A stretch of DNA of 64,000 bases, taken from assembly GCA_964607485.1 (NCBI GenBank), contig CAZSKP010000008.1:32001-96000 (forward strand). Direction: 5' to 3'. The notes beneath the pieces were generated by a model. The model was not told where the DNA came from. It was given only the letters and a program-made list of their open reading frames with translations, and ran no database searches. How positions within the stretch are numbered: position 1 is the first letter of the stretch; every line of letters begins with the position of its first letter. Below, one piece after another: positions 6,358 through 51,014 of this stretch. This DNA is from an uncultured bacterium (lineage in GTDB: Bacteria; Abyssobacteria; SURF-5). Both the position numbers and the translations under genes were made by a program.

Positions 6358-7437
6358 CTAGCCCTTCTCCAGCTCGTCTATCAGATTGTAGTAACAGTCC
6401 CGCTGCCGGGGCGCGAAGCCTGCATCTTCGATGATTGTCCTCATCTCCGAAAGGCTCATCCTGAACGTGACCCCCGCGGCGCGCACGACGTTTTCCTCTA
6501 TCATCGTGCTGCCCAAATCGTTCGCGCCGAATTGAAGCGCCAGTTGAGCTACCTTTGCGCCCTGGGTGACCCATGACGCCTGAATGTTCGGAACGTTGTC
6601 GAGGAACAGGCGCGAGACGGCCAGCGTCTTCAGGTACTCGACGCCGCCCGCCGGCGTTCCGCCCATTTCTGTGTTGGACGGTTGGAAGGTCCACGGGATG
6701 AACGCCGTGAAGCCGCCCGTCTCATCCTGCAGTTCGCGAACCTTTGAAAGGTGCTCGACCCTGTCCGCATAGTTTTCAGCATGCGCGAACATCATCGTCG
6801 CCGTCGTGCGCATTCCCATCTTGTGCGCGGTCCTCATCACGTCGAGCCATTCCCTGGCGGTGCACTTGCACGGGCTTATCCGGGAGCGAACGTGTTCCGC
6901 CAGAATCTCCGCGCCTCCGCCGGGAATCGTGTCGAGCCCCGCCGAACGCAGCCGCGAAATCACCTGCGGAACGGCCATCGCGTTGAGTCGCGCAAAATGA
7001 ACGATCTCGGGCGGCGAGAAGCCGTGTATGTGGATTTTGAACTCGCGCTTGATGAACCTGAGCATGTCGCAGTAGAACTGGAGCCGAAGGTCGGGGTGAA
7101 GCCCTCCCTGGAGCAATATCTGTGTGCCGCCCAGCTCGACCGTCTCCCTTATCTTTTGGGCCAGTCCCCGCCGGGACAGCACGTAGGCGTCGGGCATGCC
7201 GGCCGACCGGTGAAACGCGCAGAACTTGCATCCGGACACGCAGATGTTCGTGTAGTTGATGTTGCGGTCCACAGCGTAGGTGACAAGGCCGTCGGGATGC
7301 AGCCGCCGGCGGATTTCGTTGGCGACGCCGCCGATGGCGAGCAGGTCGTTGGAATGAAACAGCGCCAGCGCGGACTCTTCGTCGATGCGGCGGCCTTCGA
7401 GCGCGGAACGCAGGATGTTAGCGGTCGTCAACGGCAA
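6358..7437 (-). CDS. mqnC: cyclic dehypoxanthinyl futalosine synthase (radical SAM)
   Basis: DRNINYTNIC..GCKFCAF, ILLQGG, IPGGGAEIL, QASWVTQG, GSTMIEENVV. Confidence 0.92.
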   Translation of the reverse strand: MPLTTANILRSALEGRRIDEESALALFHSNDLLAIGGVANEIRRRLHPDGLVTYAVDRNINYTNICVSGCKFCAFHRSAGMPDAYVLSRRGLAQKIRETVELGGTQILLQGGLHPDLRLQFYCDMLRFIKREFKIHIHGFSPPEIVHFARLNAMAVPQVISRLRSAGLDTIPGGGAEILAEHVRSRISPCKCTAREWLDVMRTAHKMGMRTTATMMFAHAENYADRVEHLSKVRELQDETGGFTAFIPWTFQPSNTEMGGTPAGGVEYLKTLAVSRLFLDNVPNIQASWVTQGAKVAQLALQFGANDLGSTMIEENVVRAAGVTFRMSLSEMRTIIEDAGFAPRQRDCYYNLIDELEKG

Positions 7438-14518: not shown

Positions 14519-14546
14519 GTAGGGGCGGTTCGCGAACCGTCCCTAC
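14519..14546 (+). repeat. GTAG-type REP-like palindrome (complete copy)
   Basis: GTAGGGGCGGTTCGCGAACCGTCCCTAC. Confidence 0.8.
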
Positions 14547-16429: not shown

Positions 16430-16472
16430 AGGGGTCAGGTCTTGAAATCTGAAGTTACAAGACCTGACCCCT
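16430..16472. repeat. GGGGTCAGGTCTT-type palindrome (15-bp arms)
   Basis: AGGGGTCAGGTCTTG, 13 bp, CAAGACCTGACCCCT; half-copies at 17067-17078 and 18879-18892. Confidence 0.8.
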
Positions 16473-16537
16473 TTGTTGCTCCTAATTCGCGACGTTCGTG
16501 GTATAATAACGGTGATGAAACAAGGGGGAGACTAACA

Positions 16538-16822
16538 ATGTTTGATAGAGTACGGATACGAGTGGAAATCTTCAGAGAAGGCGACAGATACATGAGTCTT
16601 TGTCCCGAACTCAATGTGTCGAGTTACGGGGATACGCCGGAGGAGGCGAGGGAGAGTCTCAAAGAAGCTGTGTCGTTGTTTCTGGAAGAATGTGAAAGCA
16701 TGGGAACTCTGCAGGATGTCCTGGAGGAGGCGGGGTTCGAGCATAGAACCCACCCCCATGATGAATGGTTGGCTCCACACCCGTTTGCGACCGAAGAGAT
16801 AGATATTCGGACGGTGGCCTAA
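16538..16822 (+). CDS. hicB: HicB-family antitoxin
   Basis: EGDRYMSLCPELNVSSYGDTPEEARESLKEAVSLFLE; GGGGAG RBS; TGGTATAAT extended -10 upstream. Confidence 0.85.
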   Translation: MFDRVRIRVEIFREGDRYMSLCPELNVSSYGDTPEEARESLKEAVSLFLEECESMGTLQDVLEEAGFEHRTHPHDEWLAPHPFATEEIDIRTVA

Positions 16823-17056
16823 GTGCCAAGAATTGTTCCCATTGATTATCGAAAGTCAATCAGGATATTCGAACTTGACGGTTTCAAAATCGGCAGACGA
16901 AAAGGTGACCACATTAGCATGACTAAACCGGGAGTGGCCAGACCCATCGTCATAAAAACCAGTCCTGGATTGGTTCCCGTTTCCCACATCCGAACAAACA
17001 TGACCACGGCCGGGATGACGAGAGAGCGATATTTTGAACTGTTGGAGAAGGTGTAA
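16823..17056 (+). CDS. hicA: HicA-family mRNase toxin
   Basis: 77 aa basic protein, FE..GF...RRKGDHISMTKPG..RPIVI; directly follows hicB. Confidence 0.85.
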   Translation: MPRIVPIDYRKSIRIFELDGFKIGRRKGDHISMTKPGVARPIVIKTSPGLVPVSHIRTNMTTAGMTRERYFELLEKV

Positions 17057-18915: not shown

Positions 18916-19278
18916 TCAGGCGCTGCTCTCTTCGGTCAGGCGCCGGACGAGTTGCACCAACTGTTCCGAACCGAACGGCTTGACAAGGACGGCATTGGGC
19001 TTGAGGTTTTCCATACCTTCAGGATACGCAGTGACGATTGCGACAGGGAGGCTGGGATAAATGGCCCGGATATGATTGAGCAATGAAACGCCGTCCACGC
19101 CCGGCATTCTCCTGTCGGTCAGAACAAGGTCGAATTCCCGTTCGCCTAGCATTTGGATCGCCTCATCCCCCGAAGGGGCCTGCAAGACCTCATAGCCTTC
19201 CGCACTCAACAGGCGAGACATCTGCCGCCTCTGCACGTCATCGTCTTCCACGACAAGAAGGATGATCTTCTTCGGCAT
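18916..19278 (-). CDS. single-domain response regulator (REC)
   Basis: LVVEDD, LVLTDRRMPGVDG, IVTA, VKPF; GGAGA before the ATG at 19278. Confidence 0.9.
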   Translation of the reverse strand: MPKKIILLVVEDDDVQRRQMSRLLSAEGYEVLQAPSGDEAIQMLGEREFDLVLTDRRMPGVDGVSLLNHIRAIYPSLPVAIVTAYPEGMENLKPNAVLVKPFGSEQLVQLVRRLTEESSA

Positions 19279-19498
19279 GACGATTCTCCACGCGTGCCCC
19301 TTATTGGAGGCCTCGTCGTGCGCGATGCATTTGCAGATTTCCTTTCTGCCGGCATCGCAATAAATAAATGCGAGAGAGGACAAATGACAGGACACCTAAG
19401 TATATCAAGCAACTATGTCCAAAAGGAGGCCAAAAGGAAAGGGCCGGGCAGAAAGAATTTTTTGGGCGCGGGGGATAGTGGATGAGGACGTTCCAAAA

Positions 19499-19519
19499 TG
19501 TAGGGGCGGTTCGCGAACC
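19499..19519 (+). repeat. left half of a GTAG REP palindrome
   Basis: TGTAGGGGCGGTTCGCGAACC, then abrupt loss of similarity. Confidence 0.75.
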
Positions 19520-19733
19520 TGTTCCGGAGGGGGACGGGGTGGGGGGTCAAAGGGGAATATCAGCGCGAACTGGTGGTTCCCCCGGTGACAAATTTCCCTG
19601 TTTCTGGACAGGCGCTTCGCACATAGTACAAACGGTTCGCACCATGTACGAAGGTCTCTGGACATTTTTTGGACGGCGTCGTCGATGGCTGTGAGGTTTC
19701 CCGGGGACGTTGCAGGACCCTGCCCGGCAGGCG

Positions 19734-20399
19734 TCATTCGCGGACATCTTTGCCGTCGAGGCTGTATGGCAGGATCGCGCCCGTCCTGGTGTCGAGTTTT
19801 CCCGTATAGGTGAGGACCTGGCCCTCGGTATAATTAAGCAGCTTGCCGCGCAATGTATTCGGGAACGACACGAGCACGTCGTAGGTGAGGGTGCCGGGCT
19901 TGTGCCTAAATCCCGCGCTGATACCTCCCCCGCCCAGGCCTTCCTTAAGGTACGTCAGCTCTCCCGTCCACGTCACATATTTCCCCTCGTAATCTTTCCA
20001 TAATTCATCCTTTTGAAGGTCGGTCAGTTTGCTGTCTGCGCCGAAGATGTCATCGACCTCTTCGAAACTCTGTGAGAGGGATTCCCTCGCGGGCGGCGGC
20101 GCGATCTGAGATGGCCCTTTATCCGCCGACAGGGTTGCGATGACTGCCAGGCCAGCGACGGCGGTGACGGCGATCCTAAGCCAGAGCGCCCATCGGTTTG
20201 CGGTCCACATAAGGATAAGCCCGATGGGCAGACAGAACAGCAGTGAGATTCCGACTACCAGGTGCGAATGATACCAGGGTATTTTCGGTGGCGCAGGAGG
20301 CGGCGCGACGGCACGCCGGAGTGGCCGGCCGCACTTGGGGCAGGCGTGGGCCTGGTCTGATACCTGGGTGCGGCAATCCGGACAGACGATGAGAGCCAT
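19734..20399 (-). CDS. zinc-ribbon + TM + OB-fold-like membrane protein
   Basis: MALIVCPDC..VSDQAHACPKCGRP, two TM helices, C-terminal YEGKYVTWTG; typical of prophage immunity regions. Confidence 0.75.
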   Translation of the reverse strand: MALIVCPDCRTQVSDQAHACPKCGRPLRRAVAPPPAPPKIPWYHSHLVVGISLLFCLPIGLILMWTANRWALWLRIAVTAVAGLAVIATLSADKGPSQIAPPPARESLSQSFEEVDDIFGADSKLTDLQKDELWKDYEGKYVTWTGELTYLKEGLGGGGISAGFRHKPGTLTYDVLVSFPNTLRGKLLNYTEGQVLTYTGKLDTRTGAILPYSLDGKDVRE

Positions 20400-20415
20400 A
20401 GTTTCCCCTCCTTTT

Positions 20416-20811
20416 TCAGCGGCGTTTTGTAGTGGCGTCGAGCTTATTGAGGATGGATTCGAGGTCGGTCGCGAGGCTTTCTAGTCTGGCGGCGCCCCGT
20501 CGAAGCTGTTCGATGAGTCCGCTCATATCCGCGTGGTAGAATGCGGAGGCCTCCGCAACCCGGTCCGCCATCGGTTTCCCTTCCTTTATATAAGGATCAC
20601 CTTCCCCGGTTAAAAGCCACGTCGGATTACACCCAGTTTTATCCGCAATCATAGCGAGAGATTCAGGACTAGGCAGCCTCTCATCCCGTATCCACGCAGA
20701 GACGATTTGATGTTTAACCTCCAGTTGCCGGGCGAAGTCGGCCACAGTACCTTGGCCCATTAGCACACGGAGCCTATCTAAAAGCCCCTCTCTATAGTGG
20801 TGCACTCTCAT
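20416..20811 (-). CDS. phage CI-like XRE HTH repressor (no peptidase domain)
   Basis: DRLRVL..VADFARQLEVKHQIVSAWI...PS.ESLAMIA....NPTWLLTGEG; coiled-coil tail. Confidence 0.8.
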   Translation of the reverse strand: MRVHHYREGLLDRLRVLMGQGTVADFARQLEVKHQIVSAWIRDERLPSPESLAMIADKTGCNPTWLLTGEGDPYIKEGKPMADRVAEASAFYHADMSGLIEQLRRGAARLESLATDLESILNKLDATTKRR

Positions 20812-20853
20812 TTGTATTTTCTTCTTGACAGAATACAAAGCCTAGTGTATAAT
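20811..20853 (+). promoter_or_regulatory. consensus promoter overlapped by an inverted-repeat operator
   Basis: TTGACA (20825-30), 17 bp, TATAAT (20848-53); TTTGTATT/AATACAAA inverted repeat at 20811-20839. Confidence 0.8.
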
Positions 20854-20882
20854 TCTTTTCAGGGCATTTAGAGGTAAACCGG

Positions 20883-21131
20883 ATGGGGCAAAAAAAGAAA
20901 GAGGAAATTCTAAGGGCCGACACGCTGGCGATTAAGATTCGGCAGTGGAAGCTGGGCGTGACGAACCGCGAGATCGCGTGGGCGATGGGAGTGACCGAGC
21001 AGTTTGTCGGCCAGATAATAAACGGGAGTAATAGCTCGAAGGATCGTCGCATAGAGAGGTACCTGGCGCGGAGGCTGAACGCGCCGGTTGAGAAGCTGTT
21101 CCCTCGTTGCCGCTCTAGCCAGGCCGCATGA
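20883..21131 (+). CDS. Cro/Ner-like small HTH protein
   Basis: GVTNREIAWAMGVTEQFVGQIING...IERYLARRL..PVEKLFP; divergent from the CI-like gene. Confidence 0.75.
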   Translation: MGQKKKEEILRADTLAIKIRQWKLGVTNREIAWAMGVTEQFVGQIINGSNSSKDRRIERYLARRLNAPVEKLFPRCRSSQAA

Positions 21132-21243
21132 GGGGGCGGCTCCTTCCTTTTATAGTTGGGAGCTGGTAAGGCTTTAACGAAATTATAAACGACAGAGACA
21201 TCGATGTCAATTATGGAATCAGCGGGGAGATGGTAATGATGTA

Positions 21244-21528
21244 ATGAAATATTTACAACTAATTGCTAGGAGGGTGGTTATGAGAAGCGAAAGAGTAATT
21301 GTGAGGGCTTATGGCAATAGTCCCGTAGTTTGCCGCATATGGGATGAGGATGTTAGAGGTTTCTATGTTACAAATGACGAGCAGTACGAATTGCTCATGG
21401 CCGGGAAAGAAGCCATTCCGCCCATTGGAATTCCGAAGGAAGATGTATTTAAGTATGATACATCACTGAAAAATTGTACAAAAAACGGAGTGTGTGATTG
21501 GGGAAATCTAACTCTAATGAAGTTGTAA
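21244..21528 (+). CDS. hypothetical protein (start possibly 21280)
   Basis: AT-rich ORF with GGAGGG upstream of the second Met; no family recognised. Confidence 0.5.
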   Translation: MKYLQLIARRVVMRSERVIVRAYGNSPVVCRIWDEDVRGFYVTNDEQYELLMAGKEAIPPIGIPKEDVFKYDTSLKNCTKNGVCDWGNLTLMKL

Positions 21529-21537
21529 CATCGCCAT

Positions 21538-21646
21538 CTATGTTTTATCCTTTTGCTTCCATCTGGCTTTTGCGGCCTTACGGGCTATCTCTTTGCGCTT
21601 CTTGGCGGAGAGCTTCTTCGCCCTTGCCTTGCCGCCCTTTAATCCA
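21538..21646 (-). pseudogene. 3' fragment of a small basic protein (GLKGGKARA..LS..KRKEIARKAAKARW family)
   Basis: Recognisable C-terminal motif; its 5' part is replaced by the REP half at 21647. Confidence 0.65.
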
Positions 21647-21661
21647 CGAACCGCCCCTACA
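21647..21661 (-). repeat. right half of a GTAG REP palindrome
   Basis: CGAACCGCCCCTACA is the exact reverse complement of 19499-19513. Confidence 0.75.
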
Positions 21662-21691: not shown

Positions 21692-24600
21692 CTAGGAGTT
21701 TCCGACGGGCAGGCTGATCTCGACCGTGGTGCCTTCGTTAACTGCGCTCTTAATGCTGAAACCGCCGTTGTGTGCGTCGACGATTTTCTTGCAGATGTGA
21801 ATGCCCAGCCCCGTTCCGGATGTCTTGGTGGTGAAGAACGGCTCCTTGATTCGCTCCAGACCTTCCGCATCTATTCCGCAGCCGGTGTCCGAGATGGAAA
21901 GGTTCAGGAGACGTGCGCCGTCGCTCTCGACAAACTTGGAGCGTATCCAGAGGTCCCCTCCGTCGGGCATCGCCTCCACGGCGTTCGCTATGAGATTCAC
22001 GAGAGCCCGGGTCATCTTGGGAGCATCCACGAAAAATTCGCCGTCTTCCCGTTCCAACTCCAGACGGATGTTCGTTTTGTGAAGCCTGTGAGACAGGGAA
22101 TGCAATGCCTGTTCGACGATATCCCGAATCGCCCACGTGGAGCATTGCAGTTTGACCGGTCTCGAATATTCGAGCAGGTCTTCGACTATTCGGTTCAGCG
22201 AGTTGATGCCGTAATCGACTTCTTCCAGAAGCTCCCCCGTGCCCTTGTCTCCCTTTGTTCCTTTGCGAACCGCGTCGATTCCCATGCGAATGTTCTGGAG
22301 GGGATTCCGGATTTCGTGCGCCACGACCGACACCATCTGCCCGATGGATGCAAGACTCTCGGCCTGCTTGAGTTCCTGCACCTTCTTCTTTACCTCCCGA
22401 TCCAGATTCTCGGAGAGGCCGCGATATTTGGCTTCTGAACTGCGCAGTGCACCCAGATACAGGCTGTTTTGCAGAGCGATAGACGCGTGGTCGGCGAAGG
22501 CCGATGCCAGGCGAACATCATCGTCGGTGAAGCCGCCGGGCTTGTTGGCCAGTCCCATGAGGCCGACAGCGTTGCCGTTTAGGATGAGCGGCGCGAACAT
22601 CACGTTGTCCAACCGCGCGTGGCCTGGAGGCAGAAACGCGACCCACTCGGAGTCGGCGAAGTTATTATCATACACCGGTCTGCCCGAGCGGTACGCCTCG
22701 GCCCTGAGCCCGCGGACGGGCATGGGGATCTTCGGGTCAACTGAGCACGGCAAGTCTCCCGATTCGAGAAAGATAACTTCGTTCCGCGTTCCGTCTCTGC
22801 TCAAGAGGGCGACATATCCGGCGGTGGCTCCGATCAGATTCCTGCACGAATTGAATATTGCCTGCGCTGCCTTTTTGAAACTTTGGCGTTCCAAAACGGC
22901 GTGCGAGCTCTCCAGCAGCGCCTCGGTCTCGGCGGAGTGTCGCCGCGATTCATCAAGCGCATCGCGCACCTTTTCATTGGCCTGCTTTCGCTCGGTGATG
23001 TCGGTCATCACGCCGACCACCCGCCGCACGCGTCCGCTCTCGTCGCGTTCAACTGCATGAGAGTAGCCCTCAACCCAAAACCAATGGCCCTTCTTGTGTC
23101 GGAGGCGCACCTCGACATGATAGCCCGGAGATCTGCCCTCAATGAAGTCTTCGTAGGTGCGCTTTAGGAGGTCGAGGTCCTCTGGATGAACACGCTCATA
23201 GAGCCAGTCCAGGAAACGATCGTGCGGGGGCAGTTCGTTGCGGTTATACCCGAGCAACTCGGCCCAACGCTCATCATGGTAGGTCGATTCGTCGAGCGGT
23301 ACCCGGTGGTCGTATATCGCGCCGCCGGATGCGTCAAGCGCCGTTCTCAGCCGTTCTCTGCTCTCGCGCACCTTTTCTTCGGCCTGCTTTCGCTCCGTGA
23401 TGTCAATGCAGATGCCGGACATGCGTTGCGGCTTCCCATCGCTGTCGTATATCGTGTCCCCCAGGGCATTGACCCATCGTAGTTCACCGGATGGAAGCAC
23501 TATTCTAAATTCATTCGCGAGAGGCGTACCGTTGGCAATGGCCTCCTCGATCCTTTTCTCGGCAAGTACTCTATCGTCGGGATACATTATGCTTCGCCAG
23601 GAGTCAAAGCTGGCCTCGGTTTTTTGGGGGTCCAGGCCATAGAGATGGAACAGTTCTTCAGACCATTCAAGCTTGTCGGCAGACATATCCCAAACCCACA
23701 TGCCGGCTCCCGCCGAGACTTGAGCGAGTCTAAGGCGCGCTTCACTCTCTTTCAGTGCCTCCGCCGCATTCTTTCGCTCGGTGATGTCCTGCGTCGTGCC
23801 AAAACTGCCGAGCAACTCACCGTTTTTTTCGAACTCCAGCTTAGCGCGCTCGCGGACCCACTTAACAGTGTCGCCGACGACTATGCGGTGCTCGATGTCG
23901 TAGGGCTCGCCACGGAGGGCGGCCTTCCACTTCGTGTCCACATACTCCCGGTCGTCGGGATGAACTGTGCCGAGGAACGCATCATAGGTCAGCGGCGTCC
24001 CTATCGGAATCCCGAATATCCGATAGGTCTCGTCGGACCAGAGAAATTCATTCTTCTGCAAATCCAACCGCCAGCTTCCGGTATGAGCCACGGCCTGGGC
24101 GCGGTTCAGGTCCTCCCGGCTCTTGCGCAGCGCTTCCTCGAACTGCTTTCGCGCGGAAATGTCGCTGAATAGCACCGCGAATTGTCGGGGCGAGGGGCAG
24201 AAGGCAAAGACCTCATAGTCTTTATTGAGCCTGGATGAATAGTTCTCGAAGCGTACCGGCTCTCCGGTGAGCGCCACCTTTCCGTAGGTCTCGATCCAAT
24301 AAGGTTCGATATTGGGCAGCACTTCGCGGACGGTCCTGCCGATCACGTCGCTCCGCTTCAGGCCCGTGAGACGCTCGAAGGCCGGATTCACCTCGAGGAA
24401 CCGGTAATCGCACGGCTCGCCTTTTTCGTCGCAGATGATCTCGTGGAACGCAAAGCCTTCGTTCATCCGGCTGAACAGCAACTGAAACTGCCCCTCGCGC
24501 TCGAGCACGCGTTGCTCGAGGATTTCATTGATGTTGCGGAGTGTCTCCTCGGCCTGCTTTTGCTCGGTGATGTCGATGCCCATCTCGAGGATGAGCGTGG

Positions 24601-25945
24601 AGCCGTCGGTATCGATAAAGGGGAAGTCGTAGATGTAGTAGTTGCGGCCGTCCGGCCCGAGCCATTCCCACTCGTGGGGTTGCATGGTCTTCAGGACTGT
24701 AAAGGTCTCACATGTTTCGCAGGGCTCGGTTCGGTTGAACAGATAATCGTAACAGCATCTGCCGTGCGATTCGCCGAAGCGCTCGCGGAAGAAGCGATTG
24801 TCGAAGGGCACATGATAATCGGACGTAAGCAACACCACGTAGGCCGGCAGCGTCTCCAGCACGTCGAGGAACCGCTGGCGTTCGGCCTTCGCGGTGGCCT
24901 CGACCCGCTCGCGCTGTCTGCTGACTTCCTCTTCGGCGCGGATGCGGTCGGTCACGTCCACCAGGCACAGGAGCGCTCCCTCCACCTTTTCCGACGCGTC
25001 CTTTACCGGAATCAGGCTCCAGTCCCAGTGCGACACGCCCCGCTCGGGGTGCTCCGCGTACTCGAAGGGCTTCGCATAGACGGAATGCGGCTCGCCCGTC
25101 TCGACGACGCGCCGGAAGATTGCCTCGTTCTCCTTGTTGGGAAACAGGGCGAAGTGATTCTTGCCGATGAAGAAGTCCGGGTTGCGCTCATCCGCTTTGG
25201 CGTACGCGTCGTTCACCCGGATGAAGTTGAAATCGGTGTCCATGTATGCGATCAACACGTGGGTGTCCGAGAATATCTTCTCAAGGAGCTCGTTTGAATC
25301 CCGCAGTTCGCCGGTGCGCTGTTTCACCAGTTCCTCGAGGTGGTGGCGGTGTCTGTCCAGTTCCTCCCCGATCTTCTTGCGCTCGCTGATGTCGCGGATA
25401 AGGAACCGGAGCCCCGTCGGCTTGCCGTCCCGGTCGCGCACACGGGCCACGGTGATGGAAGCATAGAAGAGCTCTCCATCTCTCGGCTGCAGGACGGCCT
25501 GCCAGTTCTCCACCCGGTCGCTCTCCGTCAGTTGAGCCAGTTGAGGGTGCCAGTTTTTGCGCTCCCCCTCGGCGAGATAGAGAAAGAACGGTTTGCCCGC
25601 GAGGAACTGCTGCGAGACGTTGAGCATGGCCGCGGCGGCGCAATTTGCCTCGCGGATGACCCCCTTGGCGTCGGTCACGATGTAGCCGTCGGGCGCCAGG
25701 TCGAACAGGTCCAGGTAGCGTTTGTGCTCGGCCTCGACGGCCTGATTGGCGGCGGCCAGCTCCTCGTTCTGCTGGCGCAATTCCTCATCTGCCACCTGCA
25801 GTTCTTCGAGAGTGGTGACCAATTCCTCGAGCACGTCGGACATGAGCTCGTCGCGATTGTCGGAACCTTCGGCAGCGCGCTGATGGAGCTCAGTCAGCCG
25901 CTGCTGGAGGTGTTCGATTTGATGGTTGGGTGCAGGCTCTTTCAT
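21692..25945 (-). CDS. cytoplasmic multi-PAS/GAF sensor histidine kinase with N-terminal EEL coiled coil
   Basis: Repeated PAS/PAC ends (DISERK, DVTDR, DITEQK, DISARK, DITERK x3), GAF (LANKPGGFT), AHEIRNPL, HATPase boxes. Confidence 0.93.
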   Translation of the reverse strand: MKEPAPNHQIEHLQQRLTELHQRAAEGSDNRDELMSDVLEELVTTLEELQVADEELRQQNEELAAANQAVEAEHKRYLDLFDLAPDGYIVTDAKGVIREANCAAAAMLNVSQQFLAGKPFFLYLAEGERKNWHPQLAQLTESDRVENWQAVLQPRDGELFYASITVARVRDRDGKPTGLRFLIRDISERKKIGEELDRHRHHLEELVKQRTGELRDSNELLEKIFSDTHVLIAYMDTDFNFIRVNDAYAKADERNPDFFIGKNHFALFPNKENEAIFRRVVETGEPHSVYAKPFEYAEHPERGVSHWDWSLIPVKDASEKVEGALLCLVDVTDRIRAEEEVSRQRERVEATAKAERQRFLDVLETLPAYVVLLTSDYHVPFDNRFFRERFGESHGRCCYDYLFNRTEPCETCETFTVLKTMQPHEWEWLGPDGRNYYIYDFPFIDTDGSTLILEMGIDITEQKQAEETLRNINEILEQRVLEREGQFQLLFSRMNEGFAFHEIICDEKGEPCDYRFLEVNPAFERLTGLKRSDVIGRTVREVLPNIEPYWIETYGKVALTGEPVRFENYSSRLNKDYEVFAFCPSPRQFAVLFSDISARKQFEEALRKSREDLNRAQAVAHTGSWRLDLQKNEFLWSDETYRIFGIPIGTPLTYDAFLGTVHPDDREYVDTKWKAALRGEPYDIEHRIVVGDTVKWVRERAKLEFEKNGELLGSFGTTQDITERKNAAEALKESEARLRLAQVSAGAGMWVWDMSADKLEWSEELFHLYGLDPQKTEASFDSWRSIMYPDDRVLAEKRIEEAIANGTPLANEFRIVLPSGELRWVNALGDTIYDSDGKPQRMSGICIDITERKQAEEKVRESRERLRTALDASGGAIYDHRVPLDESTYHDERWAELLGYNRNELPPHDRFLDWLYERVHPEDLDLLKRTYEDFIEGRSPGYHVEVRLRHKKGHWFWVEGYSHAVERDESGRVRRVVGVMTDITERKQANEKVRDALDESRRHSAETEALLESSHAVLERQSFKKAAQAIFNSCRNLIGATAGYVALLSRDGTRNEVIFLESGDLPCSVDPKIPMPVRGLRAEAYRSGRPVYDNNFADSEWVAFLPPGHARLDNVMFAPLILNGNAVGLMGLANKPGGFTDDDVRLASAFADHASIALQNSLYLGALRSSEAKYRGLSENLDREVKKKVQELKQAESLASIGQMVSVVAHEIRNPLQNIRMGIDAVRKGTKGDKGTGELLEEVDYGINSLNRIVEDLLEYSRPVKLQCSTWAIRDIVEQALHSLSHRLHKTNIRLELEREDGEFFVDAPKMTRALVNLIANAVEAMPDGGDLWIRSKFVESDGARLLNLSISDTGCGIDAEGLERIKEPFFTTKTSGTGLGIHICKKIVDAHNGGFSIKSAVNEGTTVEISLPVGNS

Positions 25946-31494: not shown

Positions 31495-32448
31495 ATGAAC
31501 AATTTTGAAAGGCAGATAGAGGCGGTCACCGGCGGAGGACTGCACAGCCTTGAAATCGAGACCCTGCAGGTCAACCTGGGCCTGCGCTGCAACCAACGGT
31601 GTGCGCATTGCCACCTTGAGGCCTCGCCGCAGCGAAGTGAGATGATGGAATGGCCCACCATGCAGGCCGTGCTGGAGGCGGCCAGGAGGGTCGGCTGTCG
31701 GCTTGTCGATTTGACCGGAGGAGCGCCGGAGCTTAATCCCCATTTCCGACTCTTCTTGGATGCCCTTTGCGAGACGGGCAATCGCGTGCAGGTGCGCACC
31801 AATCTCACCGTGCTCCTCGAACCGGGCATGGAGACGATACCCGAATGGTTTCAGGAACGCGAGGTCCAGATCGTGGCCTCCATGCCGTGTTATCTCGAAG
31901 AGAACGTTCGGGCCCAGCGCGGCGCGGGAGCGTATGAGAAAAGCATCGAGGCTATCAAGCGGTTGAACGCCGTCGGCTACGGCTCCGAGTCCCGGCTGCC
32001 GCTGAATCTTGTCTATAATCCCGGCGGTCCGTTCCTGCCGCCTGAGCAGTCGGCGCTCGAGGACGACTACCGGCGCGAGCTGGGCGGGCGCTTCGGCATC
32101 ACCTTCTCCCGACTGCTGACCATCACCAACATGCCCATAGGCCGGTTTCAGGCTGAGTTGCGTCGGGAGGACCGCGAGCACGAATATCTTCGGCTTCTGC
32201 AGGAATCGTTCAATCCGACCACCGTCGACGGCCTGATGTGCAGGCATCAGCTCAGCGTCGGCTGGAACGGAAAGTTGTACGATTGCGACTTCAACCTCTC
32301 TCTCGGTCATGCCGTGAATCATGGCGCGCCCGACCACATCCGATACTTCGACCCGTCGCTTCTGAGAGCGCGCCGGATAGTCACCGGAGAGCATTGCTTC
32401 GGCTGCACGGCCGGCTTCGGGTCGTCGTGCGGGGGCGCTCTCATATGA
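31495..32448 (+). CDS. arsS: arsenosugar biosynthesis-type radical SAM protein (rSAM/Cys-rich, DUF3641)
   Basis: LQVNLGLRCNQRCAHCH, DLTGGAPE, LNLVYNP, ITNMPI, LMCR, YDCDFN, HCFGCTAGFGSSCGGAL (Cys, not Sec). Confidence 0.9.
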   Translation: MNNFERQIEAVTGGGLHSLEIETLQVNLGLRCNQRCAHCHLEASPQRSEMMEWPTMQAVLEAARRVGCRLVDLTGGAPELNPHFRLFLDALCETGNRVQVRTNLTVLLEPGMETIPEWFQEREVQIVASMPCYLEENVRAQRGAGAYEKSIEAIKRLNAVGYGSESRLPLNLVYNPGGPFLPPEQSALEDDYRRELGGRFGITFSRLLTITNMPIGRFQAELRREDREHEYLRLLQESFNPTTVDGLMCRHQLSVGWNGKLYDCDFNLSLGHAVNHGAPDHIRYFDPSLLRARRIVTGEHCFGCTAGFGSSCGGALI

Positions 32449-48285: not shown

Positions 48286-49191
48286 ATGACATTTCGTGAT
48301 TTACGCAGGACGAACACCGGCATAGTCTTTCTCCTCATCCTGACCGTCACGCTGGTGTTCGCATTCACCACAACCGCTTATGCAAAAGACCCGCAGCTCG
48401 TTCCCAAACGCCTCAGCTCCACGGGCGACAGCATCAGCGCGGGAATCGACGTGGAGTATTACGGCCAGAACGCCAACGCGAGCTGGGTCAACGGCTACTA
48501 CGGTTTCTGGCAATGGCTCTTCGGGCTCACCAATGTCAACAGCCACAACCAGCGAATCACGGCCAAATATGGCAGGTGGGGGCGCGCGAACTATATGGAT
48601 GCCGTCAGCGGCGCCGACATGTTCGACTTCCCCGCACAGACCGCCCAGGCCGCGAGCCAGAGCGCTCAGTATGTGACCGTTTTCATGGGACACAACGACG
48701 TGTGCCAGAATCATCCATGGGAGATTCCTTCCGACGATGTGTTCGAGGCGAACTTCCGCGCCGGAATGGAGAACCTGAAAAACGGTCTGCCCCATGGCGC
48801 GACGGTCTATGTGCTGGCAATCGTTGACATCAAGCAGCTCTACGAGGAAGCGAAGGACAAGAAGGCGCTCGGAATCGTGGACTGCGAAGTGCTATGGGCC
48901 ACCTCGCTGCTGGGCTGGTTCCCCTGCGGCACGATGCTCAGCCCGCTCAACACAGAGGCCGACCGCCTGGCGACCCGCGCGCGGATCGAGGGATTCAACG
49001 ACATATTAGAGACAGTGACGAACGAGTATCAGGCCAATGATTCGCACCATCACTACTGTTTCACGGAACTCCCCTTCCTCTATCCGTTCATAGAGAGCGA
49101 TGTGTCCGACCTCGACTGTTTCCATCCGTCGGCACAGGGACAGACCACCCTCTCGCGCGAGACATGGCAAATCGGTCCGTTCGGCCCGTAA
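48286..49191 (+). CDS. secreted SGNH/GDSL hydrolase
   Basis: GDSISAG, AVSGA, MGHNDVC, DCFHPS; AAGGAG RBS. Confidence 0.9.
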   Translation: MTFRDLRRTNTGIVFLLILTVTLVFAFTTTAYAKDPQLVPKRLSSTGDSISAGIDVEYYGQNANASWVNGYYGFWQWLFGLTNVNSHNQRITAKYGRWGRANYMDAVSGADMFDFPAQTAQAASQSAQYVTVFMGHNDVCQNHPWEIPSDDVFEANFRAGMENLKNGLPHGATVYVLAIVDIKQLYEEAKDKKALGIVDCEVLWATSLLGWFPCGTMLSPLNTEADRLATRARIEGFNDILETVTNEYQANDSHHHYCFTELPFLYPFIESDVSDLDCFHPSAQGQTTLSRETWQIGPFGP

Positions 49192-49231
49192 GGGAGAAGA
49201 GACGGAAGCAGGCTGGAAACTGCATCATGAC

Positions 49232-49265
49232 GAGAGGCGCCGCCACCCGCGGCGCCTCTTTTCTT
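49232..49265 (+). terminator. intrinsic terminator
   Basis: AGAGGCGCCGC-cacc-GCGGCGCCTCT followed by TTTCTT. Confidence 0.75.
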
Positions 49266-49285
49266 GTCCGCTATCCTCGAATTCT

Positions 49286-49883
49286 TCAGACTTCCCACGG
49301 TTTCTTTGGTTCCACCTTTCCCGCAGATGGATTCTCGGGATCGCTTTCCCAACAAAGAGGATTGTCGATGATGTACCGGCGAATGCGATTGAATTCTTCA
49401 TCGTTGCGGACAATGTGTTCGTAGTAATTGCGCTGCCACAGCCTGTCTGGGAACGATTTCCAGCCGCATTCGGCAATTCCTCGACGATACCGTGCGGTAG
49501 TCAGTGATTTGAAACGATGAACAACAAGGGGCAAGGACATCTTTGTAGGGGCAGGCCCCAAATCATCCGCCGAATCTGTCGTAGGGGCCTGCCCCTACAA
49601 CGGATTCAGTCAGTGGTTTGATAAAGATGATGCCGTGAAGATGGTTAGACATGATTACAACCGCGTCGATATCAATGCCCGGATAGTATTGCGGCAAATC
49701 GTGCCACACAGAATGCACCATCGCTCCAATTTCATTCAATATCGTCTGGCCATCCACAATCTTCCCGAACAAGCATCGACGCTGCCGCGCACAAATCGTC
49801 ACGAAGTATGCTCCCGCCTGCGAATAATCGAAATCTTTCAGTCGGATGGACCGGCGACGATGCTTCGGCGGGTCAGGAATCAT
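49286..49883 (-). pseudogene. REP-associated tyrosine transposase (RAYT, Y1 HUH), split by a frameshift
   Basis: RRSIRLKDFDYSQAGAYFVTIC..IMSNHLHGII in one frame; FKSLT..LWQRNYYEHIVRN..IRRYIIDNP in another. The break falls in a 17-bp inverted repeat at 49543-49600. Confidence 0.88.
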
Positions 49884-49928
49884 TCGGAAGATTCCCTTTG
49901 TAGGATTGACGCGTGCGAGTGAAGATTC

Positions 49929-51014
49929 TCAATACTTCCCGTATTTCCTGGCGGCGCGGACCATGGCGAGGTAGTTTTCGGGCTTGCATCCGGGGTGGAT
50001 GGTGTTCGACGAGGTCATGATGTATCCGCCGCCGGGCGCCGCGTCTTCGATGGCCTTCCTGACCGCGCGCTCGACCTCGTCCTCGGTTCCCCACGGCAGG
50101 AGTTCCGAGCAGTCGATGTTTCCCAGCAGGCAGATCTTATCGCCGCAGTGCTGCTTTACCTTCTTGAGATCCATTCCGCCCTGGGGCTGAAGCGGATGGA
50201 TTCCGTCGAACCCGATCTCCACGAGCCGGTCGAGTATCGGCCAGAGGTTGCCGTCGGAGTGTTTGAGGGCCTTGGCGCCTTTTTGATGAACGACCTCGAC
50301 GAGTTCCTTCATATAGGGCCCGATGAACTCATCGAACTGCGCGGGCGACATCATCGTGTTCGCGTTGAAGGCAATGTCGTCCTCAAACACGACCGCATCG
50401 ACGCCGGCATCGAGAGCCTCGGTGATTTGCTGCTTGTGGTAGTCGGTCGACATGCGGGCGAGCTCGTGGACGAGCTTCGGATTCTCGATATAATCCATCA
50501 ACAGGTGATCGAGGCCGCCTCGCAATCCCCAGCTATATCGAAAACAGTCGTGCGAGCAGAACACGATTGCGGTCTCGTCCTTGAACCGCGCCTTCACCAT
50601 GCTGAGCATCATCAGGTCAACGTCGGGGTCGGTTTTCGGAGGGCTGTAACTCTTCAGGTCCGACGGCGACTTTATCGGGCCGTCCATCGGGAAGGCGAGT
50701 CCGAAGGGATTGCGCTTGTAGGTGATGCCCCACTTGTCTTTGAAGCAGCCTTCGCCCAGCGGCTCCTCCTGCTCGAGAACCCGTGCGGAGATTCCCTCGA
50801 TCTCAAGCTCTTCGATGAAAAGCGAGAGCGCCTCGAATATCATCAGGAGCTCATCCGGGGTCATGTCGGCGACCGATTTCATCGGAGGGAGCCTGTCGGT
50901 GAAGTGCCGTGCGATGCCGATTATGCTCGATTCGTTGTAGGCCAGTTCGAACAGAGGCACCCTGTCGGGCTGCTCGAGATTGAGCGCAGCCAGAATCCTC
51001 TCTTTTCCGGTCAT
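49929..51014 (-). CDS. uroporphyrinogen decarboxylase family (MtaA/CmuA-like) protein
   Basis: MTGKERILAAL..PDRVP, DDIA, HSDGN, CLLGNID, GGGYIMTSSNTI. Confidence 0.9.
   Translation of the reverse strand: MTGKERILAALNLEQPDRVPLFELAYNESSIIGIARHFTDRLPPMKSVADMTPDELLMIFEALSLFIEELEIEGISARVLEQEEPLGEGCFKDKWGITYKRNPFGLAFPMDGPIKSPSDLKSYSPPKTDPDVDLMMLSMVKARFKDETAIVFCSHDCFRYSWGLRGGLDHLLMDYIENPKLVHELARMSTDYHKQQITEALDAGVDAVVFEDDIAFNANTMMSPAQFDEFIGPYMKELVEVVHQKGAKALKHSDGNLWPILDRLVEIGFDGIHPLQPQGGMDLKKVKQHCGDKICLLGNIDCSELLPWGTEDEVERAVRKAIEDAAPGGGYIMTSSNTIHPGCKPENYLAMVRAARKYGKY

Follow-up and report, generated by a model that had tools for sequence, protein, structure and literature searches.

How did 2.1 kb of phage-like DNA come to lie inside a single copy of a repetitive extragenic palindrome (REP)? 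The question is raised by a locus in an uncultured bacterium of the Abyssobacteria lineage SURF-5 (assembly GCA_964607485.1), which was studied in a window of 64,000 nucleotides (positions 32,001 to 96,000 of contig CAZSKP010000008.1, here G000:C8:32001-96000). The genome that holds the window, G000, comprises 4.70 Mb in 93 contigs with a GC content of 57%; its relatives are labelled G001-G009. A preliminary description of this DNA had recognised foreign, phage-like DNA within what was once one REP copy, and the genes found there, including those of a CI-type repressor and a Cro-like regulator, bear this out. The same description had tentatively attributed the structure to capture by a REP-associated tyrosine transposase (RAYT) and had put it forward as a candidate for an undescribed system. 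The present analysis points to a more familiar origin: we consider it somewhat probable that the locus is the degraded remnant of a transposable Mu/B3-like prophage, or of a close relative among DDE transposons, that was inserted in a REP. In that case an apparently new system becomes an example of a documented pattern, in which REP palindromes are targets of transposable elements, and the 6-bp duplication together with the TG...CA ends is the scar of a transposition.

The split palindrome and its junctions

The left part of the 28-bp palindrome, its positions 1-20 (GTAGGGGCGGTTCG followed by CGAACC), occupies window positions 19500-19519, while the right part, positions 15-28, occupies 21647-21660; both were recognised in the sequence itself, by a half-site scan and by a repeat search. 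The hexamer CGAACC is present in direct duplication, at 19514-19519 and as the first 6 bp of the right part. Read with one more base at each outer side, window 19499-19519 is TGTAGGGGCGGTTCG plus CGAACC, and 21647-21661 is CGAACC plus GCCCCTACA, exactly the coordinates and flanks given in the preliminary description. Deletion of the intervening 2127 bp (19520-21646) together with one CGAACC restores the perfect 28-mer GTAGGGGCGGTTCGCGAACCGCCCCTAC, as had been proposed, and the reported 15-bp terminal inverted repeats are perfect as well: in the repeat search of the window the 15-nt arms are 100% complementary, with 2133 nt in between. The near-identical intact copy mentioned for comparison was located by a pattern search of the window at 14519-14546, with one mismatch. 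The CGAACC repeat is exactly 6 bp long, the adjoining bases being different on both sides, and it corresponds to REP positions 15-20, which are off-centre in the palindrome. The order of parts at the locus is REP fragment, direct repeat, element, direct repeat and REP remainder. Since the insert begins with TG, finishes with CA and is bordered by a 6-bp direct duplication of the target, it may be read as the scar of a staggered cut by a DDE transposase.

An alternative origin would be the separate decay of two palindromes, the last 8 bp having gone from one and the first 14 bp from the other. Decayed copies do exist in this genome, for example at window 12605, an ordinary one with a tail of the ..GCCCAAAA type, and at C7:98745. 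In these copies, however, the core is preserved and the differences are point changes close to the tips, whereas the parts remaining at the locus are perfect, complementary and turned towards each other across 2.1 kb, with an overlap of exactly 6 bp. Beyond the breaks, the sequence matches the expected missing arm at one of eight positions on the left and at none on the right. Independent decay is thus extremely improbable.

Gene content of the insert

The inserted DNA (19520-21646, TGTTCC...AATCCA) was delimited by its sequence and by the GC profile, which is 57-61% at the left and drops to 41-51% at the right. It starts with a left-end non-coding block of ~145 bp (19520-19664, plus strand), recognised by alignment to a second site on contig C58 and by the repeat search. 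This is followed by two genes on the minus strand. The first (19734-20399) encodes a protein of 221 aa that has hydrophobic stretches and, at its N-terminus, a zinc ribbon; it is 54% identical to the product of a gene in an island-like region of the relative G005. The second (20416-20811) encodes a 131-aa CI-type helix-turn-helix (HTH) repressor (PF01381 and PF07022; phrog_2328, transcriptional repressor). Divergent from the repressor, an 82-aa Cro-like HTH protein is encoded on the plus strand (20883-21131) behind a perfect sigma-70 consensus promoter (TTGACA, 17 nt, TATAAT; 20825-20853, plus strand). The right part of the insert holds an open reading frame (ORF) of 82 aa without a family match in Pfam or PHROGs (21280-21528, plus strand) and a 36-codon C-terminal fragment of a small protein, which ends in ..GLKGGKARAKKLSAKKRKEIARKAAKARWKQKDKT and a stop (21538-21646, minus strand). 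All genes of the insert are single-copy in G000. A second perfect sigma-70 promoter (12 of 12 positions) is found within the insert at window 21182-21210 on the minus strand; it is directed towards the 3' end of the Cro-like gene and could drive an antisense transcript.

The preliminary description had stated that this cargo carries no recombinase, and the family scans agree: no recombinase or transposase family was matched in the four ORFs (Pfam and PHROGs) or in the fragment (Pfam only). The phage type is suggested instead by the regulatory genes. Near the left end of the insert the CI-type repressor gene is read leftward and the small HTH gene, divergent from it, rightward. This is the layout known from the left end of Mu, where the repressor is transcribed towards the end and a small regulator in the opposite direction. 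For the Cro-like protein a single relative came to light, 44% identical, whose gene occupies the Ner position of a Mu-type prophage in G001:C116. The gene order there is an S24 CI repressor, the Cro-like homologue, CII-like and DUF3102-like genes and then a 601-aa transposase, which matches phrog_310 (E 1.5e-39) and, at 21.3 bits and so below the cut-off of 21.7, PF09299 (Mu-transpos_C). The G001 contig stops before the left end of this prophage. No left end was obtained from a Mu-type region in G006:C27, which is not collinear.

Other homologues are few. In the collection searched, the phylum is represented by 11 species genomes and the order by 10. Ten of these 11 phylum genomes, all but G000, lack a homologue of the CI-like protein at E <= 1e-5. 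A search of genome contigs with an alignment of the Cro-like protein returned the G001 contig only, and no relative emerged from viral contigs, whether the query was the 82-aa ORF, the CI-like protein or the same Cro alignment. Word-based protein searches yielded the query alone for Cro and nothing for CI. An Atlas search gave generic Cro/C1 clusters, as well as two HTH_35 clusters at ranks 5 and 25, which are a lead only.

The left end and its second occurrence

The first ~145 bp of the insert match a second site in the genome, G000:C58:21097-21236, with 69% identity (123 of 177 aligned columns, shared palindrome bases counted). The homology consists of perfectly conserved blocks with variable spacers and starts at insert base 1 (TGTTCC), so TGTTCC is a true, recurrent end of an element. 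At C58 a complete palindrome (C58:21241-21268) is separated from this end by 4 bp (AGAG), so that the junction falls after REP position 20 in the window and 4 bp past position 28 at C58, a difference of 12 bp. As the same end is found outside an intact REP, the junction is not at a fixed REP position, and this variable placement relative to the palindrome disfavours an enzyme that acts at a fixed site, such as a RAYT or an integrase.

The 145-bp block includes a tandem 20-mer as well as two directly repeated motifs, GTTTCTGGACA and GTCTCTGGACA, at a distance of 54 bp. Direct repeats at the ends are typical of Mu-, Tn7- and Tn552-type transposons. The block has no Rfam match and no copies in the other nine family genomes, patterns made from its conserved core gave no matches in genome_contigs and viral_contigs, and consensus folds of the two sequences (window and C58) contain few compensatory pairs. 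Several candidates for further ends were rejected. A miniature element at C58 with a related right end is not favoured by the alignment score (34, where shuffled sequences reach 29.8 +/- 5.6), a CAGAG repeat at C58, at a distance of 229 bp, is too weak to count, and motif scans gave chance matches only, the best of which, C5:148406, lies inside an apparently ordinary coding frame.

The arrangement of the left end also bears on an origin by site-specific recombination. Here, a tyrosine or serine integrase would have used the palindrome as its bacterial attachment site (attB) and CGAACC as the crossover core, the 145-bp block would be an arm with integrase-binding repeats, and the integrase would have been lost with the prophage. 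The 6-bp identity at both junctions would fit an overlap region, direct repeats are placed 80-145 bp from the junction, and, in our own reading of the sequence, an open frame would cross the hypothetical phage attachment site (attP) into the truncated gene at the right end. This attP-spanning frame, however, is unlike the N-terminus of the G006 homologue of the truncated gene and meets a stop in the C58 copy; the ORF across the hypothetical circle junction was rejected since, though in frame, it is unlike the N-terminus of the gene family and its conservation pattern is not coding-like. No integrase was found in the insert with Pfam and PHROGs. Moreover, a site-specific enzyme should cross at one position, whereas the junction of this arm at C58 is shifted by 12 bp and lies outside an intact palindrome. 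An immunity region right at the end of the element, as seen here, is unusual for integrase phages. An integrase is therefore a distinctly improbable agent.

Each of the two known TGTTCC ends is located at a REP, in the window within the palindrome and at C58 4 bp beyond it, and by arithmetic on a count of 26 copies ~940 bp of the 4.7-Mb genome are as close as 4 bp to a copy. It is tempting, though rather unlikely on present evidence, that the family of TGTTCC ends, probably a transposable phage lineage, targets the palindrome or something bound there as its landing site; if this is true, REPs are landing pads for kilobase phage DNA in a rare phylum. The closeness of the two ends to REPs might be due to target choice, to a REP-anchored duplication or to survival in neutral spacers, and two ends only hint at the first of these.

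The C58 palindrome itself appears to be ancestral, since G007 has a palindrome at the equivalent site (G007:C35:~6410-6437), upstream of a MoxR-like gene and its promoter. The gap between the CorA and MoxR genes is 983 bp in G000 versus 253-453 bp in G004 and G006. The C58 and G007 palindromes are identical at 27 of 28 positions and stand upstream of the promoter of an orthologous MoxR-like gene in two genera, with a diverged spacer around them. From this comparison the MoxR-upstream palindrome seems to be under constraint or to be homogenised.

The right junction and the truncated gene

The claim that the right junction cuts a gene holds. The fragment at 21538-21646 has no start codon and reaches the junction, and its full-length homologue in G006 has 81 aa, ~45 N-terminal codons being missing from the fragment. 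When the G006 homologue is compared with the REP arm GGGCGGTTCG at an offset of 1 nt, 8 of the last 10 nt ahead of the break point (GGTCGGTTGG) agree with the arm, which makes a deletion by short homology feasible. A later deletion is the simplest account of the truncation at the right junction and its probable cause. Under this account the right end was set by the deletion, and the terminal CA would accordingly be a coincidence.

The same junction may be explained without any transposase. A break in or at the palindrome could have been repaired with a phage fragment by end joining or microhomology, and the fill-in of a staggered break would have produced the 6-bp duplication. Illegitimate capture of this kind is in line with a right junction that is arbitrary relative to gene structure, with the REP-arm-like sequence at the break point in the G006 homologue and with an insert that has no recombinase. 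It leaves unexplained, however, that the C58 homology starts at precisely the base where the insert does and that both copies of the left end are no more than 4 bp from a REP, and a 6-nt staggered break would still require a nuclease of its own. We therefore regard it as unlikely.

Origin of the insert

Insertion of a transposable prophage followed by deletion might have proceeded as follows. A Mu/B3-like phage, or a relative among DDE transposons, would have inserted into the 28-bp palindrome in the spacer between a kinase gene and a regulator gene. Its transposase would have cut the target 6 bp apart, with the result that CGAACC (REP positions 15-20) was duplicated and the arms were separated. 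Only the first 2.1 kb would have survived: the left end with repeated motifs that resemble binding sites, the leftward operon of the CI-type repressor and the zinc-ribbon membrane protein, the Cro-like gene read rightward behind its perfect promoter, and one small ORF. The remainder, including the transposase, would have been lost in a later deletion from the interior of a small gene to the right phage-host junction, for which the short homology between this small gene and the REP arm may have been used.

Several points weigh against this origin. The right junction, which cuts a gene, is no natural end of a phage, its CA may have arisen by chance (1 in 16), and the repeat search revealed no inverted repeat common to the right and left ends beyond the REP arms. 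The right end was also rejected as a surrogate transposase end: it matches the left terminus at 8 of 16 positions, and 5.4% of 16-mers that start with TG reach at least 9. The deletion model requires a breakpoint exactly at the junction, and the homology invoked for it was read from a 78%-identical homologue, not from the lost sequence. Just two copies of the TGTTCC left end are known. The Cro-like protein has no match to the Ner family PF13693 in Pfam and is Ner-like only by its position and its one homologue. Neither a transposase (A) nor an ATPase (B) was found in the insert with Pfam and PHROGs, and the G000 genome has no homologue of the G001-type transposase. A search of the genome with PF02914 was without a match; this profile is silent in control genomes too and is hence uninformative. 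Three rve and two IS110 matches in G000 are located on other contigs or far from any palindrome copy. The insert, with 2127 bp, four ORFs and a fragment, compares with the ~36-39 kb, including head, tail and lysis genes, expected of a prophage of this type. Finally, searches of the relatives, the metagenome, genome_contigs and viral_contigs gave neither an exact empty site nor a full-length relative.

The palindrome family

The palindrome occurs beyond chance. In the window the 28-mer has one match with up to 3 mismatches versus none in 100 shuffles, and the 14-nt half-site has 9 matches with up to 2 mismatches versus 0.59 expected. Genome-wide there are 8 perfect copies of the 28-mer; the count rises to 21 when up to 3 mismatches are allowed and to 26 when up to 6 are. 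This copy number is low for a REP family; the copies lie mostly outside genes, and each of the 26 is a singlet, inverted doublets (REPINs) not being seen among them. In the family, which is the whole order in the collection searched, exact 28-mers are present in 5 of the 10 genomes and exact half-sites in 7. Because the palindrome is almost base-identical across genera whose orthologous genes share only ~65-79% identity, it is likely to be maintained by something. Such conservation in a poorly known phylum, together with a copy that lies in frame in a RAYT-like gene (see below), is of interest in its own right.

When all half-sites of the genome with up to 1 mismatch are considered, only 19500(+) and 21647(-) pair as complementary partial copies. 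For three lone one-mismatch half-sites, at C2:110554, C3:26353 and C19:20341, neither a second arm nor a partner on the contig is present. All half-sites of the relatives without an exact partner, 36 in number, were retrieved for inspection, and every one proved to be a full palindrome with 1-5 mismatches in the other arm, mostly in the outer four bases; none is split. The pair in the window is therefore the sole split among ~68 copies (~26 in G000 and 42 in the family relatives, 6 of the latter perfect), and half-palindrome pairs are not a recurring structure. The genome-wide check for inward-facing half-REP pairs that the preliminary description had suggested thus returns a single pair, the one from which it started, and none in the relatives. 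The general, integrase-free route of gene acquisition envisaged there is hardly compatible with this uniqueness.

Other repeats occur near the palindrome. A 13-bp palindrome, GGGGACAGTCCCC, is found within ~10-80 bp of ~6-8 of the 26 copies of the 28-mer (e.g. on C5, C9, C13, C18 and C47 and at window 12580), a proximity that suggests composite repeats; it is related to the GGGACAG(A/T)C-type repeats that flank Y1 genes. An inverted doublet of ~75 bp (GTAGGTGCGAATTCATTCGCAC .. GTGCGAATGAATTCGCACCTAC) is located at L001:16594-16668 (G000:C58), C7:72171, C8:101924, C51:8613 and C1:186022. With few copies in G000 and dozens in the relatives G006 and G009, it looks like a REPIN family or a family of miniature inverted-repeat transposable elements.

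RAYT-like genes

The mechanism favoured in the preliminary description was that a RAYT, a Y1 enzyme of the HUH type, had nicked and rejoined REP-bearing single-stranded DNA and in this way captured or mobilised an arbitrary kilobase fragment between REP arms. The genome does encode Y1/RAYT-like genes. One of them, outside the window (G000:C1:211062-211652; L159:362-952, plus strand), is an uninterrupted ORF of 196 aa that stays below threshold (57.2 bits for NF047646, REP-associated tyrosine transposase, versus a cut-off of 80, and 20.2 for PF01797 versus 23). It contains an exact copy of the 28-bp palindrome in frame, which encodes ..CRGGSRTAPT.. between the HUH-like NHLH and the RNYYEH tyrosine motifs. 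The near-identity of the palindrome across genera and a cargo without its own recombinase would also suit a RAYT. The palindrome is linked to a RAYT-like gene in this way, but nothing ties that gene to the insertion.

Several observations speak against such a capture. An exact 6-bp target duplication is present, and peel-and-paste transposition by HUH enzymes leaves none. The duplicated positions are off-centre, where one enzyme acting alike on both strands of the palindrome should cut symmetrically, and the ends are half arms, whereas HUH enzymes recognise hairpins. At C58 the left end stands outside an intact REP, and one copy among the ~68 examined is split. No Y1 gene lies less than 6 kb from any copy, save the gene that contains one; none of the five PF01797 matches in the genome is flanked by the 28-bp palindrome, and three are flanked by GGGACAG-type repeats. 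Capture by a RAYT is accordingly very improbable.

Repeats of the GGGACAG(A/T)C type flank three Y1 transposase-like genes of 230-265 aa (G000:C2:11200, C6:82382 and C38:33194). The window contains another RAYT-like gene of the C1 type, at 49100-50200 on the minus strand (PF01797 match 49367-49552). It is interrupted by a frameshift within a palindrome pair other than the 28-mer (GTAGGGGCAGGCCCCTAC .. GGGGCCTGCCCCTAC), which takes up the position in the protein that the palindrome has in the C1 ORF.

Host flanks

The left flank of the locus carries a response-regulator gene (18916-19278, minus strand), identified from the ORF list and by comparison with G008 and G002, as well as a histidine-kinase gene. 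On the right, a large PAS histidine-kinase gene (1417 aa; 21692-25945, minus strand; ORF list and comparison with relatives) has its stop codon 32 bp from the right palindrome part. In G008 and G002 the kinase is followed by the regulator at a distance of 214-378 bp without any insert, which indicates that the 2.1 kb were inserted into an old gene pair. Neither of these two, which are members of other genera, has a palindrome in its kinase-regulator spacer; G000 is the sole member of its genus in the collection searched. A metagenome search with the response regulator gave as its best match, at 59% identity, a 1-kb contig that is not syntenic. Four runs of one study are stored as contigs only; these contigs do not differ from the window and contain neither joints nor loose ends, which is uninformative with regard to empty-site or excision reads. 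The source runs are labelled sediment metagenome.

The insertion destroyed the hairpin of the palindrome, and in the region of window 19290-19740 the leftward repressor operon now faces the response-regulator gene with no terminator-like site between them. Read-through from the repressor operon into the host operon is conceivable. Immediately to the left of the kinase and regulator genes, window 16442-17056 holds a pair of HicB-like and HicA-like genes (126 and 77 aa), recognised by sequence motifs only.

Comparison with known systems

Among transposable phages of the Mu/B3 type, phage B3 is described as making a 6-bp duplication and Mu a 5-bp one, and the transposable prophages of Leptospira treated in the same source are delimited by TA-TA or TG-CA dinucleotides and by 6-bp flanking repeats (PMC8705779). 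The TG...CA ends and the 6-bp duplication of the insert are like those reported there for B3 and the Leptospira prophages (PMC8705779). The repressor and the divergent small regulator at its left end are also shared with Mu/B3-type phages, and the Cro-like protein has its homologue in a Mu-type prophage. Unlike these phages, the insert retains just 2.1 kb of ~36-39 kb, without transposase, ATPase or structural genes, and its right end is not phage-like. To our knowledge, REP-associated insertion is not a known feature of Mu/B3-type phages.

It is a described feature of insertion sequence (IS) elements. Tobes and Pareja (2006, PMC1525189) list ISPsy8, ISPa11, ISPpu9/10, ISRm22, IS1397, ISKpn1 and IS621 as elements that insert into REPs. 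For IS elements of five families, the order of REP fragment, direct repeat, element, direct repeat and REP remainder is reported, and ISRm22 makes 6-bp repeats (PMC1525189). The locus resembles this type 1 association in its broken-REP and direct-repeat layout and, for ISRm22, in the length of the repeats; the IS elements covered by that report differ in carrying a transposase, in being present in several copies and in having one fixed break point in the REP (PMC1525189). Here, in contrast, there is a single insert without a transposase, with cargo of the phage type and with a second end just outside a REP. The suggestion of an undescribed system is not sustained, since the TG...CA ends and the 6-bp duplication match a known scar of transposition and the broken-REP layout is known for IS elements.

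With the REP/RAYT systems and REPINs described elsewhere (PMC2817692, PMC3116915, PMC3333891) the locus shares a short, GC-rich, intergenic palindrome in a genome that has Y1 transposase-like genes. It is unlike them in that there are only ~26 copies, all of them singlets, none of the five PF01797 matches is flanked by the palindrome, and one RAYT-like ORF holds it in frame.

Grounded and degraded prophages, as portrayed in PMC6379469, are alike in that an apparently intact immunity module is kept while mobility and lytic genes are lost. The repressor/Cro switch of the insert appears to be intact as well, and it may still confer immunity to related phages. In comparison with such prophages, the remnant in the window is unusually small and has kept both of its original target junctions.

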